Of a stretch of 64,000 nucleotides of DNA, positions 9,316 to 62,070 are shown one piece after another (within the stretch, counting starts at the first letter, position 1; every line of letters starts with the position of its first letter). The stretch is from a phage. Position numbers and translations under genes: made by a program. Below the pieces are notes generated by a model, which was not told the DNA's origin, did not search any database, and worked only from the letters and a program-made list of their open reading frames with translations. The stretch lies in NCBI GenBank assembly GCA_022143435.1, contig GCA_022143435.1_3941.1. One strand, 5' to 3'.

Positions 9316-9843
9316 ATGATTACACAAGAACGTTTAAAGGAACTACTACACTATGACCCCGAAACAGGGGTCTTTACTTGGCTTCGTAGGGAGGGTGACT
9401 CAAGGGCTGTTAAAGTCTTTAATAGTCGGTACGCAGGACAGGTAGCGGGGAGCATCCAGATTGACTCAACTGGTCATAATCAGATTACTATCTATTTTGA
9501 CAAGAAAGCACATAAAGCGCACAGACTCGCATGGCTGTACGTGTATGGTAGGCTGCCGAAAGGTGTTATTGACCATGTTAATGGGGACTCCCTTGATAAC
9601 AGGATTGTAAACTTAAGAGAAGCAGATGACTACCAAAGTGCTTGGAATAAAAGCAAACTATCCACCAATAAATCAGGCTATAAGGGTGTAAGCCTGAAGA
9701 AGAAGTCTGGTAGGTGGGTTGCGCAAATAAGCTATAAAGGTAAAAAGATGTCATTAGGCTACTATGACACACCAGAAGAGGCCCATAAAGCTTACTGTGA
9801 AGCTGCTGTAAAACTCCACGGAGAGTTTGCAAAACTAAGTTGA
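9316..9843 (+). CDS. HNH homing endonuclease with AP2-type DNA-binding domain
   Basis: HNH core HRLAWLYVYGRLPKGVIDHVNGDSLDNRIVNL; AP2-like SGYKGVSLKKKSGRWVAQISYKGKKMSLGYYDTPEEA; starts 11 nt after the polymerase stop. Confidence 0.8.
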   Translation: MITQERLKELLHYDPETGVFTWLRREGDSRAVKVFNSRYAGQVAGSIQIDSTGHNQITIYFDKKAHKAHRLAWLYVYGRLPKGVIDHVNGDSLDNRIVNLREADDYQSAWNKSKLSTNKSGYKGVSLKKKSGRWVAQISYKGKKMSLGYYDTPEEAHKAYCEAAVKLHGEFAKLS

Positions 9844-9894
9844 CAAGGTGCTCAGGGAAGAGTACCTTATACTATATCTTGTATAGGAGGGCTT

Positions 9895-10104
9895 ATGAGC
9901 CACCGTGGAAGAACCCATGCAGCGATGATGAAAGGTGCTTCAAAGGAGACTATCAAAAATCGTAAGCAGAAGTTGTTTGAGAGGATGAACAGGTTAATTG
10001 ACAATTCATCTCTTTCAGGTTCTGAGAAGGTTTTCTTGAAAGGTAATCTGAAAAGCATTGCACAAGAACTTATTGACATTGAGTATTGGAGACATCAAAA
10101 ATGA
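9895..10104 (+). CDS. hypothetical protein
   Basis: 69-aa ORF with RBS GGAGGG. Confidence 0.45.
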   Translation: MSHRGRTHAAMMKGASKETIKNRKQKLFERMNRLIDNSSLSGSEKVFLKGNLKSIAQELIDIEYWRHQK

Positions 10105-17252: not shown

Positions 17253-17260
17253 AACAAAAA

Positions 17261-17282
17261 AGGCTCCCGTAAAAAGGAGCCT
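17261..17282. terminator. bidirectional terminator hairpin between convergent genes
   Basis: AGGCTCC-loop-GGAGCCT flanked by A-run on plus (T-run on minus). Confidence 0.6.
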
Positions 17283-17288
17283 TAAACT

Positions 17289-17660
17289 TTATTTTTCAGT
17301 ATTCTTTGTGTTCTTTTCAGTAATAGCTTGGAGGGCTGATACTGATTGAGCCAGATTGTTCACACTGTCAGAGAATTTATCAAGAGTTTTGGTAAGTTTT
17401 GCGTTTTCACCCTTAACATTCTCTAACTGAACTTTCTGGTTCTCCATCCCTAGCTGAATCAGTCTCATGTCAGACTGTAAATCACGAATAGCTGAATAGT
17501 TACTTTTGGAATAATTATCTAGCTGCTGTAACTTTGTTGTGACAGACACTTCTTGTTTACCACTTGAAACTTGCATAGTGGTATACATCCCAATAACACT
17601 AAAAATACCAACTACAATTGCACCAATATTATTTTTAAAAGCTTCCTCTAGCCACTTCAT
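17289..17660 (-). CDS. membrane-anchored coiled-coil protein (possible lysis/holin-like or spanin-like)
   Basis: N-terminal TM segment IGAIVVGIFSVIGMYTT then long heptad-like region; last gene of the tail-fibre operon. Confidence 0.4.
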   Translation of the reverse strand: MKWLEEAFKNNIGAIVVGIFSVIGMYTTMQVSSGKQEVSVTTKLQQLDNYSKSNYSAIRDLQSDMRLIQLGMENQKVQLENVKGENAKLTKTLDKFSDSVNNLAQSVSALQAITEKNTKNTEK

Positions 17661-17855
17661 TTATTTCTCCCCCTTAAAAGCTTTTTCTAAGTTATCTACG
17701 AACTCATCATCAATAGGTGTGTCTGTTTTACTCGCAAGGTATCTTGCAAGCTTAAAGAACACTTTCTCAATCATGTATTCACTTAGAAGGGATAAAATGA
17801 GTTTCCAGAAGAAGCTACCTAGATTTTTTAGAAGAATTGCTAGGATTGTAGGCAT
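17661..17855 (-). CDS. hypothetical small protein
   Basis: 64-aa ORF, hydrophobic N-terminus. Confidence 0.4.
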   Translation of the reverse strand: MPTILAILLKNLGSFFWKLILSLLSEYMIEKVFFKLARYLASKTDTPIDDEFVDNLEKAFKGEK

Positions 17856-17934
17856 TTAATCACCTCATCAGCCAAGATGGTGAGAATACCCATAAAGAAT
17901 ATTAACACCATCTTAACAATCAGTCAACAAGGGA

Positions 17935-20325
17935 TTAAGCAGTTCTTACCCAAGCCATTAACTTGTAGAACTGGTTAGTAACACTAAATGCTGAACCAGA
18001 ACCTGTACCACCAGTGTTACCACTAACTGTATGGGTGTGAGCACCAATACCTACAGAGTGGGTGTGAGCACCAGTGTTACTTGTAGTACCAGACCATGTG
18101 TGTGTATGGTTACCAGTTGTGTTAGTGTTAGGGAACTTGTTATCAGTTCTGTCAAGCCAGTCAAGAGTTCTCGTCTTGTTATTGCTAACAGTTGTATAAC
18201 CGTACTGAGCATCACCACCATTAACCAATAGTAGACCTAAGTGGTGAGCGTGGTTACCAGCAGCACTTGTTGTACCACTTACAGAGTGAGTATGACCACC
18301 AGTGCTATTAGTGCTCTTCGTACCATAATCAAAAGATGAAGTGGTAGCAGAGAAACTATGGGTGTGTGATGGTAAGTTACCAACAGCTAACGTCACAGAA
18401 TCTGAACCGCCAGTTGTAGCAACATCTGAACCGTTTGCTGCTGCAATCCTGATAGTTCTACCAACACCATTGTTAAGGTACGTCCAAGTTAGACCAGGAA
18501 GTGCCGTATTAGGGTCAACATTACTGTTAAACCACGTTACAATGCCTACTGGATAGATTTTGTTAAGGTCTGTAGAGTCACTGATTGCTTCTGCAATCTT
18601 CTGGTCAGTTTCTGCTTTAGTATATGCACCGATATCTGAGGGTGCTGGTTTATCTTGGTCTGTATAGATTTTAGCCCATGTATTCTCAAAACCATACCCA
18701 TCTCGTGCTGTCCTGTACCAAATACCACCATTCCTGTAGCTAAACTTCAACTGTGCAGTTGGTGTTGAGCCACCACCGATATACATCTGATAAACCAGAT
18801 GTGTTGAACCACCAGATTCCCTTGTAACATTATACAAACCAGTTCTAGCATTCCAAGCAATACCATCCCCACCACCAGCCTCTGTACCATTGCCAGTAGA
18901 GATAGCATACATGTACCTATAGTCTGCGGTAGATTGCGTGTAATATCTAGCATCTAAGTTAGCCCAATCAGAAGGTTGAACTTGACCAGTAATGGCTAAA
19001 TTCTTATTCGCAACAATTGCTGATGGTTCAAGGGCAATTTGAGTACCAGAGTAACTATTGTTTAAGGTTACCACATTAGAGTTTGGGCCACCTACACCTA
19101 ACCACCACCTCGATACGTTCGCGGTATCCACACCACGGATATATAGTGGTTGCCCCTGTGTCAAGTTTCTTAATACTAAACCTTCGTTATTTGCTACGAT
19201 AGTCTGCACATTCACAAATGTGTTAGCAACATTAAGTTTAGGCAGGTTACTCAAAGTTGCGGCTGGGATATATCTAGAGTCAATGTTAGTCCAATCAGAG
19301 GGTTGAACTTGACCAGTGATTTTTACACTCTTATTAAATGTAGCACCAGACGAGTTTAAGACAATTGAGGTGTTGCCCTTGTAATCGTAAAATGTGATAT
19401 TGTCATTTGCATCACCTTTACCGATATACCACAGATTATTGTTTTCAACATCTTTTGCTAGGATGAACAAAGACTCATTAACAGCTTTATTTTTTAGCAT
19501 GATAGCAGCAGCATTAGAGCTGACACTAACATAGTTGCTGAAGGTGTTTAAACCACTAAAAGTGTTATTAGCAGTTAACTGTGCAAACCTCTGATTAGCT
19601 GCTGTCTGAGTAAAATATCTAGCATCTAAGTTAGAGAAGTCAGATGGTTGAACTTGACCAGTGATTCTTAGGGTTTTACTAATAGCAGCAACACTAGACA
19701 GATTAACTTCACAACCTGTCTTGTAGTTGTGGATAATAACATTGTCATTCACTGAACCATTACCTACATACCACCTATTAGCACCAGTGCTATCCTGACC
19801 TCTAATATACAACGGTGAGTTCTCAGAAGAGTTTTTTAGTCTAATAGCTTCACCATTTGCTTGAATAACCTGTTGGAAGGTAAAGATGTTATTTGCAGCT
19901 AATCTTGAGTATCTTGCATCATTCTCTTCATTAGTTCTCATCCCAAGTTCATTAGGACTTGGCTTATTCAGAGTATGATAAACAGTTGCCGACCTTGAAG
20001 CATCTGCAATAGTTAGTTTAAGGCCATTTGCATTGATTTTAAAAGTCTTTAAAACATCCCCAATAGTAATCTCAGAAGAGCCTGTTGGGTTAAAGACTAC
20101 CTTACCACCATAAAGTAACTTAACAATCCCTAAATCACCCGTCATAGTACTACCAGCAATCTGAACAAATCTTTCAAGTTTAAAAGATGCTAAGAAATCT
20201 TGATAGGTCATTCGACGGTCTTCATCGCCAAGCATTTCAGGTCTCTTTTTAACTCTGACATGAAGAAGGTCATCTGAACGGATTGTATCGATTGAGTTTA
20301 ATTCACTCAACTTGTAATCTGCCAT
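17935..20325 (-). CDS. tail fibre protein (distal, HxH-motif tip)
   Basis: 796 aa; three internal repeats beginning ITGQVQPSD; C-terminal His-x-His clusters ([29 protein letters not shown]) like T4 gp37 needle. Confidence 0.75.
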
Positions 20326-20371
20326 TATAAATTTTCCTCTTAAAAGGGGCTATCAAGCCCCTGTAAAGAAA

Positions 20372-21559
20372 TTAAGCTGTTCTCTGCCATACATACAGTA
20401 CGAAGGATGGCTGCTCAATGTTGAAAGCTTGTCCACCACCAACACTGTTAGTATTCCCGCTATGTGTATGCTCAGAAGAAGAAACTGTCACAGTACCATT
20501 GTGCGTATGTGAACCAATACCAACCGTATGACTGTGAGCACCGATACCTACAGAGTGAGAATGGTCACCAGTTGTGTTAGTAGTAACACTGAAAGAGTGA
20601 GTGTGTGCACCAGCTACTTCACAGACAGCATCTGCTGAGTACCATGATTGGTCATTTCTTGTAGACCAAACCATTGCAGGTCTTTCCGATAGGCCACCAC
20701 CTGCTTCATATGTCAATCTGTGGTTGTGAGCACCAGCAGAACTTGTTGACCCACTACCAACATGGTTATGGTTACCAGTCGTGTTAGTGGTTTTAGTTCC
20801 ATAGTCAAAAGAGTTAGTAGTCTTAGTTCCATAATCAAAAGCTGAAATTGACACCGTTGCATTATGAGTATGACCACCACCACTAAGAGACACAGAGTGA
20901 GAGTGTTGAGGCATGTTATTAACTGACAAAGTGACAGTTGAAGCACCAAATACAGAACCTGCTGGTCTTGTGTCAGAGTCATAACCAACCAATGCTCTAC
21001 CCTTTGAAACTAACTCCCAAGTACCTCCACAAATTAAATATGTAGAAGGGTTTGCAGAGTTCATGGAAAGATGGATAGTACCTACTGGATAGGAAGCCTG
21101 AACAGCCTTGTACAAGTTATTTACTGCTCTTGCTGTAGCATACTTATCTGCATCTTCGTTATAAAGGTTAGATGTTGTCCAGTTCTGAACATTACTCAAT
21201 CCTACCTGTGCCTTAGTTGTATTATGTGGGTTGCTCTTGTCCTGAATATGCTGTTGAACAAGATTATTAACCTCTTCTGAAGACATAATCTGTAGATTTG
21301 CTCTTGCCTGAGCTACATTAGTAACGTCTGATAAGTTATTTGCAGCAACTAACTGAAGAGCATTGATAACGTTATCTAAACCAATTTGTGTTTTAGTAAC
21401 ACCATGAGGGTTATTTCTTAGGCTTGAGTGTGGAGCAAGTAATTGCTCAAGAGTACATCTCTTATCCTCAATACCCTGCTTAAGATGGAAGATATCACTA
21501 AGGTCAATTGGTAAGGCTGCTTGAGGCAAGGCACTAATTTGAATTTCACCTACCGCCAT
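20372..21559 (-). CDS. tail fibre protein (second, HxH-motif tip)
   Basis: 395 aa; [43 protein letters not shown]; C-terminus parallels the adjacent fibre. Confidence 0.7.
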   Translation of the reverse strand: MAVGEIQISALPQAALPIDLSDIFHLKQGIEDKRCTLEQLLAPHSSLRNNPHGVTKTQIGLDNVINALQLVAANNLSDVTNVAQARANLQIMSSEEVNNLVQQHIQDKSNPHNTTKAQVGLSNVQNWTTSNLYNEDADKYATARAVNNLYKAVQASYPVGTIHLSMNSANPSTYLICGGTWELVSKGRALVGYDSDTRPAGSVFGASTVTLSVNNMPQHSHSVSLSGGGHTHNATVSISAFDYGTKTTNSFDYGTKTTNTTGNHNHVGSGSTSSAGAHNHRLTYEAGGGLSERPAMVWSTRNDQSWYSADAVCEVAGAHTHSFSVTTNTTGDHSHSVGIGAHSHTVGIGSHTHNGTVTVSSSEHTHSGNTNSVGGGQAFNIEQPSFVLYVWQRTA

Positions 21560-42619: not shown

Positions 42620-43177
42620 TTACTTTCTTAGTGGATGAATAAAGAATGCCAACATAACTCTTTCCCTTGAGAATGCTCTTTCTTCTGGGACAACACTTTT
42701 TAGCTTCCACCCAATATAAATTCTCCAGTAGAACTGTTTACCAAAGATTTTAATTGATGGGATAAAAGCGAATAATCCCCAAGCATTGCTGTTCCACATT
42801 AGGAGATAACCTGTCTGATTATCTTCAGGGTTAGAACTTACGTTGATATTACCTTTCCACTTAGTAACATCTTTTACATCTCTTCCTAATACATGGTAAG
42901 AGAAGTTATAAGCTTTGTTTCTCCAGAGCCATCCGACTCTTTGCATGTAGACACCTAGTTTACCAATCCATCTAATATTAGCCCATCTTTTAACGTGACC
43001 TTCATCACCATCAATTGGGTTGTCATATGTCTCCATCCATCTGAATCCGAAAGGTAAGTGTCCTTTCTTCTCACTGTAGAATGGAACTACAAAAGGTGCT
43101 AAGATAACTGCTAAGATTGCTGCAAATGGCTCTAACAAAGCTAAGAAAATCCATGAAGCATACTTCAAATATCTCAT
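42620..43177 (-). CDS. membrane protein embedded in tRNA array
   Basis: N-terminal hydrophobic segment WIFLALLEPFAAILAVILAPFVVPF; Trp-rich. Confidence 0.45.
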   Translation of the reverse strand: MRYLKYASWIFLALLEPFAAILAVILAPFVVPFYSEKKGHLPFGFRWMETYDNPIDGDEGHVKRWANIRWIGKLGVYMQRVGWLWRNKAYNFSYHVLGRDVKDVTKWKGNINVSSNPEDNQTGYLLMWNSNAWGLFAFIPSIKIFGKQFYWRIYIGWKLKSVVPEERAFSRERVMLAFFIHPLRK

Positions 43178-49832: not shown

Positions 49833-50659
49833 TTAAAGCAAAGACTTACCCAGACTTCAAAGAGTTTGTGAAGGGCTTCGTTGAAAATGTAAAGGCTGGT
49901 AAGAGATATGATTTTAGAACATATCAGGAGGCTATTTTACCGCTTACCTATAGTTCGTATTGGCCTGAAGCTGATATTGCAGAAGTTGAGAAGTTTGACT
50001 ACAAACCAGACTACAAAGTTCCATTTAGTGATGAGTTGCTTTACAGCGTTGGTGCTCAAATGAGAACTTCTGACTTCTTCATGGATTTGCAGTATGTAAT
50101 CATCAATGGTAAAGATGTTGACACAATTTACTGTGAATGGTTGGCAAGAGTTAAGCCTTTCTCAATGTTGAATGCTAAGTTGAAGGATGCTATTAAGCCA
50201 CCAGCAATTACTCAGCAACCAACAGGTCAAACAGTCAATGAGGGTGGCACACTTACTCTAAGCATTCTAGCAACTAACGCCACTGGATATCAGTGGAAGA
50301 AGGATGGTGAGGACATCCCTAGTGCCAATTCTGCAACTTACACAAAACAGTCAGTAGCACCTTCTGACGCTGGTTCATACACTTGTGTTGTATCTGGAGA
50401 GGGTGGAACAAGTGTTACCTCAGATACAGCAACAGTGACTGTGAACGCACTACCTGTGATTACACAACAACCTTCTAGCCAGACCATCAATGAGGGTGGA
50501 AACATCAACTTGGAAGTGACTGCAACTACTGCAACTTACACCAAAGAAGGTGCAACCGCTGCTGATGCAGGAAGCTACACTTGTGTAGTTACTGGTGCAG
50601 GTGGCTCTGTAACATCTAATGCGGCAACAGTTACAGTTAACCCAGCAGAGGAGGCATAA
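49829..50659 (+). CDS. protein with two C-terminal Ig-like domains
   Basis: Tandem repeats ITQQP...NEGG...GSYTCVV...TVTVN (Ig-like Y-x-C signature). Confidence 0.55.
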   Translation: MIKAKTYPDFKEFVKGFVENVKAGKRYDFRTYQEAILPLTYSSYWPEADIAEVEKFDYKPDYKVPFSDELLYSVGAQMRTSDFFMDLQYVIINGKDVDTIYCEWLARVKPFSMLNAKLKDAIKPPAITQQPTGQTVNEGGTLTLSILATNATGYQWKKDGEDIPSANSATYTKQSVAPSDAGSYTCVVSGEGGTSVTSDTATVTVNALPVITQQPSSQTINEGGNINLEVTATTATYTKEGATAADAGSYTCVVTGAGGSVTSNAATVTVNPAEEA

Positions 50660-51123
50660 TGCAACTCTCAAGAAAAGGTTTAGATGCTATTAAGTTCTTC
50701 GAAGGTCTGAAGTTAGAGGCTTACGAAGACTCTGCCGGAATCCCAACAATCGGGTATGGGACAATCCGTATTGACGGAAAACCTGTTAAGATGGGTATGA
50801 AAATTACTGCTGAACAAGCTGAACAGTATCTTCTCGCAGATGTTGAAAAGTTCGTTGCAGCAGTGAACAAATCCATCAAGGTTCCAACTTCTCAGAATGA
50901 GTTCGATGCACTTGTAAGTGAAACATACAACATCGGTATCACAGCTATGCAGGATTCTACATTTATCAAGCGCCACAATGCTGGTAATAAGGTAGGTTGT
51001 GCAGAAGCTATGCAGTGGTGGAACAAGGTTACAGTCAAAGGTCAGAAGGTCACTTCAAACGGCCTGAAAAACAGACGTAGAATGGAAGCTGACATTTATC
51101 TTGACAGTGTATATCCAAAGTAA
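50659..51123 (+). CDS. lysozyme (GH24, T4 e-like) endolysin
   Basis: Catalytic region EGLKLEAYEDSAGIPTIGYG (Glu-Asp-Thr triad spacing). Confidence 0.85.
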   Translation: MQLSRKGLDAIKFFEGLKLEAYEDSAGIPTIGYGTIRIDGKPVKMGMKITAEQAEQYLLADVEKFVAAVNKSIKVPTSQNEFDALVSETYNIGITAMQDSTFIKRHNAGNKVGCAEAMQWWNKVTVKGQKVTSNGLKNRRRMEADIYLDSVYPK

Positions 51124-53254: not shown

Positions 53255-53473
53255 ATGAAAAAGCTAACTACAGTTGAAGATTACTACAAACTGTCCCTGT
53301 TAGAGCAATATCGTAGAAGTCAGAATATAAGAAAGTGCTATGGTAAACACGCTGAAGGTGACTTTTACCGTTGCTACGATGCAGATTTAAAAGGCGTAAC
53401 ACCTAGAGGGAAAGTCCTGCAAAGACTTGTTGACCTTGAGTGGAATAAACGATTGAGAGGGATTGGAAAATGA
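53255..53473 (+). CDS. hypothetical protein
   Basis: 72-aa ORF. Confidence 0.4.
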   Translation: MKKLTTVEDYYKLSLLEQYRRSQNIRKCYGKHAEGDFYRCYDADLKGVTPRGKVLQRLVDLEWNKRLRGIGK

Positions 53474-53973
53474 TTTACGAAGAAAGATATAAGATAGATT
53501 ATCAGGATACTCGTCATCACACCTCTTTGAGAGTAACCAAACCAAATGGGGATACCGGTATCATAGCACACTTTGGTGGTGACTATTGGTACGGTACAGG
53601 TTGCTTTGAAGGCTACACTCAAGAATACTTGAAAGCTTTCTACAGAGACTTTACAAATGACTACAACAGGGTTGTTGAAGAGAAGAATAAGTGCATTAAG
53701 CATGAATACCATGCCAGAGGTTGTCTGAATATTGCTATGATACTGGTTTTCTTCTTAGCAACATTACTAGCCGTATCAGCAATCAGTTACATAGCTCAAG
53801 ATTTAACTATCACACAGATTACTGCAAAGATACACGATATCTGGTACTTGTATGCTGTTCCTTTAGCTGGTATCATCACCTCACTAATAAGGTTCAGAGT
53901 TCATAAGAAACGACTTAAGGACTCTGAGGTTAAACTTGAAGAGGTAAGTAAAGAATGCAACCTACAATTATAG
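53470..53973 (+). CDS. membrane protein (two predicted TM segments)
   Basis: Hydrophobic stretches IAMILVFFLATLLAVSAISYI and YLYAVPLAGIITSLI. Confidence 0.45.
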   Translation: MIYEERYKIDYQDTRHHTSLRVTKPNGDTGIIAHFGGDYWYGTGCFEGYTQEYLKAFYRDFTNDYNRVVEEKNKCIKHEYHARGCLNIAMILVFFLATLLAVSAISYIAQDLTITQITAKIHDIWYLYAVPLAGIITSLIRFRVHKKRLKDSEVKLEEVSKECNLQL

Positions 53974-61712: not shown

Positions 61713-61741
61713 AATTTAATCTATCTAAAAACCAGTATCAA
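61713..61741 (-). promoter_or_regulatory. sigma70-like promoter of type A cassette (TTGATA-N17-TAAATT)
   Basis: Near-identical to the promoter at 60848-60876. Confidence 0.5.
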
Positions 61742-62070
61742 CAGTTTTGTTTTCGTTTGCTCAATTCTTGAACAATTACAGCGTAGTAGTCTTTTAAGTC
61801 ACTGACATTTAAAGCATTTATCAGAGAATTATAATCATCAACTAACTGAAAATTATCTTTGAAGATGTCACTTATCTGATAGGTTTTCGCTTTATATCTG
61901 AAGCTCATCTCTAGCCGCTTTATTTGCTCATCACTGAGGCGCCCTAGAAAGCTTTCTACAAGGCTATTACTAACCTGCTGTGTGATTGCCTTATTTGCTA
62001 GATTATAGGCTTTATATGCCTTATATAGCGCGAAAATGGCAATGATTGCAGTGATACCAGTCATTAACAT
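61738..62070 (-). CDS. small membrane protein, hypothetical
   Basis: N-terminal TM segment ITAIIAIFALY. Confidence 0.45.
   Translation of the reverse strand: MLMTGITAIIAIFALYKAYKAYNLANKAITQQVSNSLVESFLGRLSDEQIKRLEMSFRYKAKTYQISDIFKDNFQLVDDYNSLINALNVSDLKDYYAVIVQELSKRKQNC

Follow-up and report, generated by a model that had tools for sequence, protein, structure and literature searches.

A P18-family gene and a membrane-anchored coiled-coil gene behind the tail-fibre genes of a Felixounavirus: a candidate lysis module

How does a phage release a soluble lysozyme when no holin gene lies beside the lysozyme gene? This question is raised by a stretch of 64,000 nucleotides (nt) of phage DNA (GenBank assembly GCA_022143435.1, contig GCA_022143435.1_3941.1; the whole stretch is called the window hereafter), in which two small open reading frames (ORFs) at 17289-17855, for proteins of 64 and 123 amino acids (aa), lie downstream of the tail-fibre genes. 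A previous reading of the window from the letters alone (the sequence-only reading) had described these two ORFs, both of which are found as described on the minus strand, and had proposed them as lysis-gene candidates, pointing to a lysozyme gene at 50659 with no obvious holin nearby. Indeed, no membrane protein adjoins this endolysin gene; the nearest, at 53470-53973, is 2.3 kb away. An N-terminal hydrophobic or signal-arrest-release segment was looked for in the endolysin and none was found, and a soluble endolysin of this kind needs a canonical holin. Around the pair, the DNA aligns at 92-96% identity with dozens of genomes of Felixounavirus, a genus of Felix O1-like myophages that infect Salmonella and E. 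coli, and the window is assigned by this similarity to that genus; the 64-aa gene is the homologue of Felix O1 ORF78, and the 123-aa gene that of ORF79/gp79. Felix O1-type phages are widely used in Salmonella and E. coli typing, biocontrol and therapy, and their holin has never been rigorously identified.

In the reading that we favour and regard as fairly probable, the pair is a PM2-type lysis module, composed of a P18-family accessory factor and a probable class-III-like holin. It is favoured because the 64-aa protein shares its family with gp l of phage PM2, a defined lysis factor, and because P18-family genes repeatedly adjoin endolysin or holin genes in unrelated phages. The idea of lysis is itself already known from literature and databases: gp79 was named a holin candidate in 2010, and the P18 homology was described in 2007. 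What is added here is systematic neighbourhood evidence only.

The P18-like protein and its coiled-coil partner

The 64-aa protein matches phrog_402 with an E-value of 1.4e-22. Gp l of PM2 (51 aa, taken from the PM2 genome) matches the same PHROG with 8.2e-14 and scores 27.3 bits against a hidden Markov model (HMM) built from the tailed-phage members of the family. Furthermore, the Pfam family PF26925 (“Phage_PM2_Gpl”) is precomputed on every near-identical database cluster of the 64-aa protein. By these three means, the precomputed PF26925 labels, PHROG 402 and our own HMM, the 64-aa protein is placed almost certainly in the PM2 P18 / gp l family. In PM2, P17 represents a distinct holin class, and P18 is needed for disruption of the outer membrane, a requirement known from PM2 alone (Krupovic 2007, as cited in PMC9502842 and PMC6356626). 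Homologues of P18 have been reported in PaP3, Felix 01, RB49, P-SSM4, S-PM2, and P-SSM2 (Krupovic and Bamford, PMC1950889). P18 is equated here with gp l because the Felix O1 and RB49 proteins are relatives of gp l and not of gp k. As Krupovic et al. reportedly described them in 2007, gp k has 53 aa and one transmembrane helix, and gp l has 51 aa and none.

An AlphaFold model of the 64-aa protein (made from a 31-sequence alignment; pLDDT 80) consists of three helices, 2-23, 26-43 and 47-61, all of them amphipathic, and the protein has no cysteine, lipobox or signal peptide. Helix 1 is hydrophobic with a narrow polar stripe and is borderline transmembrane (Kyte-Doolittle 1.56); the protein is net neutral and its C-terminal helix is acidic. 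In the family alignments T46, D49, D50, and F52 are invariant, and E26, F33, F34, and T44 are at least 90% conserved. The motif T-x-T-x-x-D-D-x-F of the 64-aa protein belongs to the family core, L..L(S/T)E..I..FF..A...A.KT.T..DD.F..LE, which is found in proteins of about 50-80 aa. PM2 gp l deviates from the motif (S-x-N-x-x-D-N-E-L), is without the first ~8, hydrophobic, residues and is clearly not membrane-spanning. When the model was compared with viral structures by Foldseek, only family members were returned, from RB49-like phages and cyanophages, all of them uncharacterised. Probably, the 64-aa protein is an accessory (outer-membrane) lysis factor and neither a holin nor a clear membrane protein, and in this respect the sequence-only reading is to be corrected.

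For the 123-aa protein, three approaches agree on one N-terminal transmembrane segment and a long coiled coil, as had been noticed before. Hydropathy gives a single hydrophobic segment at residues ~11-31; AlphaFold predicts two helices, 3-32 and the uninterrupted 40-122 (pLDDT >90), joined by a disordered linker (33-39); and in one heptad register 71% of the a/d positions are hydrophobic, compared with 19% elsewhere. Cysteines are absent, and the C-terminus is charged (EKNTKNTEK, or ...TKKK in other genera). The protein falls into phrog_4038, a PHROG without assigned function, and a HMMER search of 1.84 billion representatives with it gave six matches, two of which are real distant relatives (114 and 128 aa). 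Judging from these searches, the family is essentially confined to Ounavirinae, which is typical for holins but proves nothing. Comparison with known families (Pfam, NCBIfam, PADLOC, and sequences of the PDB) yielded coiled-coil noise only (DivIC, SMC, spike S2, DruC). One distant relative, P0202, has a cationic N-terminus, MARRK, that fits an N-in topology; a search for its locus in IMG/VR found nothing. The protein thus has the generic traits of a holin, namely small size, one transmembrane helix, a charged C-terminus and a lineage-restricted family, and it is the best candidate for the holin of this phage, an assignment on which we stand close to the balance point.

The same assignment has been made by others with various firmness. 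Felix O1 gp79 was among five holin candidates (Whichard 2010), and the announcement of phage Mushroom describes a class III holin with one transmembrane helix, N-in/C-out (PMC4392139), while its GenBank record says “hypothetical.” Many other records, including those of Mijalis, SUSP1 and many BASEL-type phages, carry “holin” or “putative holin.” A “Holin-P” of a relative of SWJM-02 (Felixounavirus) has 372 bp, 123 aa, 36% GC and one transmembrane helix, and its crude recombinant protein lysed Salmonella from without, which is consistent with membrane activity and is no holin test (PMC12774745). The phage of that paper, vB_SpuM_23, has a stated genome GC of 47.5%, compared with 39% for Felix O1; its “Holin-1” (54% GC, Phage_holin_3_6) and “Lysis” gene (54% GC) misfit Felixounavirus and appear to be Salmonella prophage genes that became mixed in. 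Two more holin papers, on UE-M6 and ASEC2201, were set aside, as they concern unrelated phages.

Both genes are real and under strong purifying selection: dN/dS is 0.02-0.13 against other genera, and 0.02-0.04 against Mooglevirus and Suspvirus, with saturation of synonymous sites in these cross-genus comparisons. Every one of the ~260-300 Ounavirinae records found contains the pair; the two genes always co-occur, and they are adjacent in all Ounavirinae, even in a Hafnia phage and in Kolesnikvirus, a distant member with 24% and 52% identity. A tblastn search retrieves 298 phage records for the 123-aa gene and 401 for the 64-aa gene. Because the stop of the 64-aa gene and the start of the 123-aa gene abut (TAAATG), with the Shine-Dalgarno sequence of the latter inside the former, the two are taken to be translationally coupled. 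The junction is tight in all aligned genera, either abutting or with a 4-nt overlap.

Some database entries call for comment. The 64-aa gene is labelled “hypothetical” in essentially every GenBank record. In Mushroom it is annotated as a truncated ORF of 33 aa (locus 1573-1674), although neither the full-length frame nor its Shine-Dalgarno sequence is damaged; the short form is a mistake of annotation that has been carried into UniProt A0A0B5H2D3. Copies of the pair genes with 98-99% identity occur in MG065668 (Campylobacter phage A126) and GU169904 (Staphylococcus phage SA1), which are most likely contaminated or chimeric assemblies, not true cross-genus occurrences.

Neighbourhoods of P18-family genes

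In marine Vibrio-type phages and metagenome contigs, near-identical P18-like genes (MIQVLVK...KTKHDDKFY...) are found directly after four different genes. Three of these encode endolysins, of the types GH108 with PG_binding_3, GH24 Phage_lysozyme, and Amidase_2; the fourth encodes a DUF5675 protein (phrog_1501, without assigned function), which has no lysis-family match and is not callable as an endolysin. This post-endolysin position is the “spanin slot” of a lysis cassette, and the marine loci look like an enzyme shuffled around a constant accessory gene. ORFs of 31-39 aa with one transmembrane helix are seen upstream in two of them.

A holin gene takes the neighbouring place in RB49-like relatives of T4 (Krischvirus and related contigs): the order is gp37, the P18-like gene, and then the T holin gene, directly downstream. 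The product of this neighbour matches Phage_holin_T (PF11031) with an E-value of 4.5e-61, whereas the 123-aa protein has no match to that family at E <= 0.1. In phage UPWr_E1 three extra genes are inserted between the fibre gene and the P18-like gene, and the latter still abuts the holin gene. In Ounavirinae, the gp79-like gene always follows the P18-like gene. In Hafnia phage SarahDanielle and related contigs the order is fibre gene, gene for a gp38-like adhesin (Gp38_N), P18-like gene and gp79-like gene, that is, the order 37-38-t of T4 with one small gene inserted. The likeness of the position to that of T4 t after the fibre genes, to which the sequence-only reading had drawn attention, is strengthened by both the RB49-like and the Ounavirinae arrangements.

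There are more distant cases. In PaP3 (Bruynoghevirus), the locus 9662-10085 holds two overlapping genes: orf10 (63 aa) is P18-like with an E-value of 1.7e-11, and the product of orf11 (82 aa) begins with a transmembrane helix at 7-29, behind which a further helix lies. A tail-fibre gene comes next. The counterparts of both ORFs are labelled “hypothetical” in all of the ~100 Bruynoghevirus records, and orf10 and orf11 do not bear the label “constituent protein.” Because PaP3 and LUZ24 stand on a list of spanin-less phages, the two ORFs are candidates for the missing holin and outer-membrane step. In PM2, likewise, the gene of gp k, a protein that consists of a transmembrane helix and a further helix, overlaps that of gp l. 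A P18-family gene accompanied by the gene of a single-pass membrane protein therefore recurs in four unrelated phage groups, and in two of the four the partner is an experimentally supported holin type (T4 T, PM2 P17). In 7-11-like and SU10-like podophages, on the other hand, the P18-like gene is located between capsid-decoration genes on one side and adaptor or tail-tubular genes on the other, and no lysis gene is evident beside it.

Five of the seven phages with documented P18 or homologues, PM2, PaP3, P-SSM2, P-SSM4, and S-PM2, are on the spanin-less list (PMC6139136), a hint that the outer membrane may be crossed without spanins. Speculatively, and we would call this rather doubtful at present, a P18-family protein and an adjacent single-pass protein (transmembrane helix, then helix) may form a portable lysis module of two genes that extends from the tailless corticoviruses to tailed phages, with Ounavirinae, PaP3/LUZ24-like phages and RB49-like phages (T as the partner) among its lineages and with the P18-like part serving as the spanin-independent outer-membrane route. 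If so, Felix O1-like and RB49-like phages would have two outer-membrane systems side by side, and the P18 family would possibly explain the way in which many “spanin-less” phages of Gram-negative hosts get through the outer membrane.

A proposed mechanism and its competitors

In the PM2-type reading, the 64-aa and 123-aa genes would constitute a conserved, coupled two-gene lysis cassette that ends the tail-fibre cluster. As a bitopic protein of the inner membrane, the 123-aa protein would combine an N-terminal transmembrane helix with a coiled-coil helix of ~12 nm; it may accumulate, oligomerise via the transmembrane helix and the coiled coil, and open lesions at a set time. Through these lesions the soluble lysozyme, encoded 33 kb away, would be released together with the P18-like protein, which may stay cytoplasmic up to the breach of the inner membrane and may then help to destabilise the outer membrane, in line with the part that P18 is considered to play in PM2. 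Overlapped Rz/Rz1-type spanins, whose genes lie elsewhere in such genomes, would act alongside.

Expression of the pair may have its own regulation. The spacer of 79 nt between the fibre gene and the 64-aa gene (17856-17934, minus strand) is conserved across three genera between which synonymous sites are saturated, and it contains a sigma-70-like promoter candidate (Table 1). Both hexamers and the TG of this candidate are invariant across the three genera while the positions of its spacer vary, and it is the sole exact match within the window; promoter-like matches in this region occur at chance frequency in the consensus scan. The inverted repeat that overlaps it is not a classic terminator, because no T-run comes after it, although WebGeSTer calls it a terminator in phage ASO1B; it is possibly a regulatory hairpin or an operator. 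A leader-RNA switch was also considered, and none clearly emerged: on folding, the read-through leader and the promoter-initiated leader both partly sequester the ribosome-binding site. The spacer may thus give the pair its own regulated transcription. As for timing, an end-point reverse transcription-PCR (RT-PCR) table for Felix O1 of 2010 gives the maximum of ORF79 at 5 min and that of ORF78 at 25 min; the table is unreliable and is given little weight, because capsid genes are also scored “early” in it. A literature search found no RNA-seq paper for Felixounavirus.

Three other explanations of the pair have to be weighed. It may be a device for outer-membrane disruption in which the 123-aa protein is an i-spanin-like coiled coil, the real holin being elsewhere, e.g., at 53470-53973. 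The 123-aa protein has indeed the architecture of an i-spanin, an N-terminal transmembrane helix and then a coiled coil, and it weakly matches Rz-like spanin PHROGs (E 0.009 and 0.036) and the T4-type PseT.3-like gene beside an Rz1 gene (E 0.6). Besides, outer-membrane disruption is the role documented for P18 in PM2, and a protein with probably two transmembrane helices is encoded 2.3 kb from the endolysin. However, these spanin matches are non-significant and confined to the coiled coil, the helix in the AlphaFold model is unbroken and without the hinge typical of Rz, and the 64-aa protein has no cysteine. An embedded o-spanin was considered, a 30-aa ORF at 17519-17611 with “LLGC,” and rejected: this ORF contains stops in Mijalis (Mooglevirus) and SUSP1 (Suspvirus) and reads “LLEC” in Mushroom. 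The two-component spanin reading fails because there is no lipoprotein partner, the LLGC ORF is unconserved and the spanin similarities are non-significant. In addition, overlapped i/o-spanins are already present elsewhere in these phages; they are the JH2 family of a published catalogue (Kongari 2018, PMC6139136) and are located in Mushroom at 84161-84671, a position outside the window. Altogether, we judge a spanin-like device unlikely.

Somewhat less likely still is an early or continuous membrane function of the pair, or at least of the 123-aa protein, such as superinfection exclusion, immunity or antiholin-like timing. T4 Sp and RI are small N-terminally anchored proteins to which the 123-aa protein may be likened, and a promoter-like sequence directly upstream of the pair and the 5-min maximum of ORF79 would agree with early expression. 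Against this stand the frequency of such promoter-like matches and the “early” capsid genes of the same table, as described above; moreover, profile searches revealed no similarity of the 123-aa protein to any exclusion, immunity or antiholin family, and tight coupling joins its gene to that of a lysis-factor homologue, whose recurrent neighbours are endolysins and holins. Hardly probable, finally, is that the two proteins are chaperone-like factors for assembly or attachment of the tail fibre. The pair or the P18-like gene does lie beside fibre genes in Ounavirinae, Krischvirus and PaP3-like phages, and within a structural module in 7-11-like phages. Nevertheless, the P18-like gene of UPWr_E1 is three genes away from the fibre gene and keeps its place at the holin gene, those of the marine phages follow endolysin genes in replication/lysis regions far from fibres, and PM2, whose gp l is a lysis factor, has no tail fibres. 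Neither protein matches gp38, Tfa or gp57-type families in Pfam and PHROG searches, and virion proteomics of Felix O1 lists neither gp78 nor gp79; the latter speaks, though weakly, for the sequence-only reading, which had held that occurrence in virions would contradict a role in lysis.

The PM2-type lysis module, which we prefer, also has several points against it. The 123-aa protein matches no holin family in searches of Pfam, PHROG, and NCBIfam. Homology to PM2 gp k was tried and rejected (3 bits by hmmsearch, probability of 0.3% by hhalign), and homology to PaP3 orf11 is likewise not detectable. Topology prediction, which had been recommended earlier, gives one transmembrane helix, and the flanking charges do not settle its orientation. 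“Holin-P” was applied as a crude protein from outside, and its sequence could not be checked (PMC12774745). The protein encoded at 53470-53973, 2.3 kb downstream of the endolysin gene on the same strand, could be the holin and is the main alternative candidate. An outer-membrane role of the 64-aa protein would be redundant, because the phage already has spanins. A conserved promoter candidate precedes the pair, and the RT-PCR maximum of ORF79 at 5 min, in the unreliable table described above, is unexpected for a holin gene. The P18-like gene lies within the structural module in 7-11-like and PaP3-like podophages. The proposal of lysis genes has gained for the 64-aa protein a homology to P18, while for the 123-aa protein the holin role stays at the level of a candidate.

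The features of the locus and the other relevant genes of the window are collected in Table 1. The proteins of the two fibre genes contain gp37_trimer, gp37_C, and Gp10_C domains and match PHROGs annotated “tail fiber.” Both have tips with histidine-rich H-x-H repeats (Gp10_C / gp37_C-like), and the same kind of tip, HTHxH, occurs in PaP3 orf12, beside the P18-like pair of that phage. The terminator behind the pair is likewise annotated in ASO1B, Mijalis, and Felix O1. Hydrophobic segments are found in the products of 53470-53973 and 61738-62070, the two further membrane-protein candidates named in advance, and 42620-43177 is added to them.

Table 1. Positions of the pair, its signals and other genes considered in the window
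Feature	Position	Strand	Remarks
Bidirectional intrinsic terminator	17260-17283	.	Ends the fibre/lysis unit on one side and the convergent thymidylate synthase gene on the other
123-aa gene (candidate holin)	17289-17660	minus	ATG straight after the TAA of the 64-aa gene; GGGGGAG Shine-Dalgarno
64-aa gene (P18-like)	17661-17855	minus	ATG start; GAGGTG Shine-Dalgarno 6 nt upstream
GGGGGAG Shine-Dalgarno of the 123-aa gene	17667-17673	minus	Within the 3′ end of the 64-aa gene; direct reading
GAGGTG Shine-Dalgarno of the 64-aa gene	17861-17866	minus	AGGTGA core kept in 7/7 aligned genomes
9-bp inverted repeat, AAGATGGTG ... CACCATCTT	17874-17914	minus	Conserved; overlaps the promoter candidate
Sigma-70-like promoter candidate, TTGACT-17 nt-TGtTAATAT	17899-17927	minus	Consensus scan
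Two tail-fibre genes (796 aa, 395 aa)	17935-21559	minus	Immediately upstream of the pair
185-aa protein	42620-43177	minus	N-terminal transmembrane helix
Soluble GH24 endolysin	50659-51123	+	phrog_7, E 1.5e-57
167-aa protein, PHROG 4343 (no assigned function)	53470-53973	+	Hydrophobic 81-112, probably a second segment at ~123-142; charged C-terminus
110-aa protein, PHROG 4375 (no assigned function)	61738-62070	minus	N-terminal transmembrane helix; among small leftward genes

Comparison with known lysis systems

The nearest parallel is the P17/P18 system of PM2. The 64-aa protein is in the PHROG and the Pfam family of P18, the P18-like gene is located in both cases beside the gene of a small protein with an N-terminal transmembrane helix and a following helix, and both pairs lie at the 3′ end of a block of late structural genes. 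The order is reversed, however, with the P18-like gene coming first in the Felix O1-like phage, and the 123-aa partner, 2.3 times the length of gp k, shows no detectable similarity to it. PM2 is also spanin-less according to the Kongari list, whereas the Felix O1-like phage has a lysozyme and spanins elsewhere in its genome. In PM2 no endolysin was recognised originally, and a later study proposes the structural protein P5 as a putative endolysin.

With holin T of T4 (class III), the 123-aa protein shares a single transmembrane helix and a large extramembrane C-terminal domain, and its gene shares with t the position directly after the distal fibre or adhesin genes, far from the endolysin gene. 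In the RB49-like relatives of T4 even the gene in front is the same, since t, like the 123-aa gene, comes immediately after a P18-family gene. T differs in having 218 aa and a globular periplasmic domain, in contrast to the one long coiled-coil helix of the 123-aa protein. No homologues of the antiholins RI and RIII were identified in the Felix O1-like window.

Lambda Rz and T4 PseT.3 resemble the 123-aa protein in an N-terminal transmembrane anchor followed by a helical coiled coil of ~90 residues, with weak compositional similarity, while the 123-aa protein has no adjacent, overlapped or embedded o-spanin lipoprotein, no hinge and no cysteines. For the P18-like protein, a conceptual parallel is the “disruptin” gp28 of phiKT, a small, helical and amphipathic non-spanin disruptor of the outer membrane, which is encoded in lysis cassettes, has no signal sequence and acts on the outer membrane after holin and endolysin. 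The two share this concept and differ in charge: the disruptin is strongly cationic, and the P18-like protein has no net charge and an acidic helix at its C-terminus.

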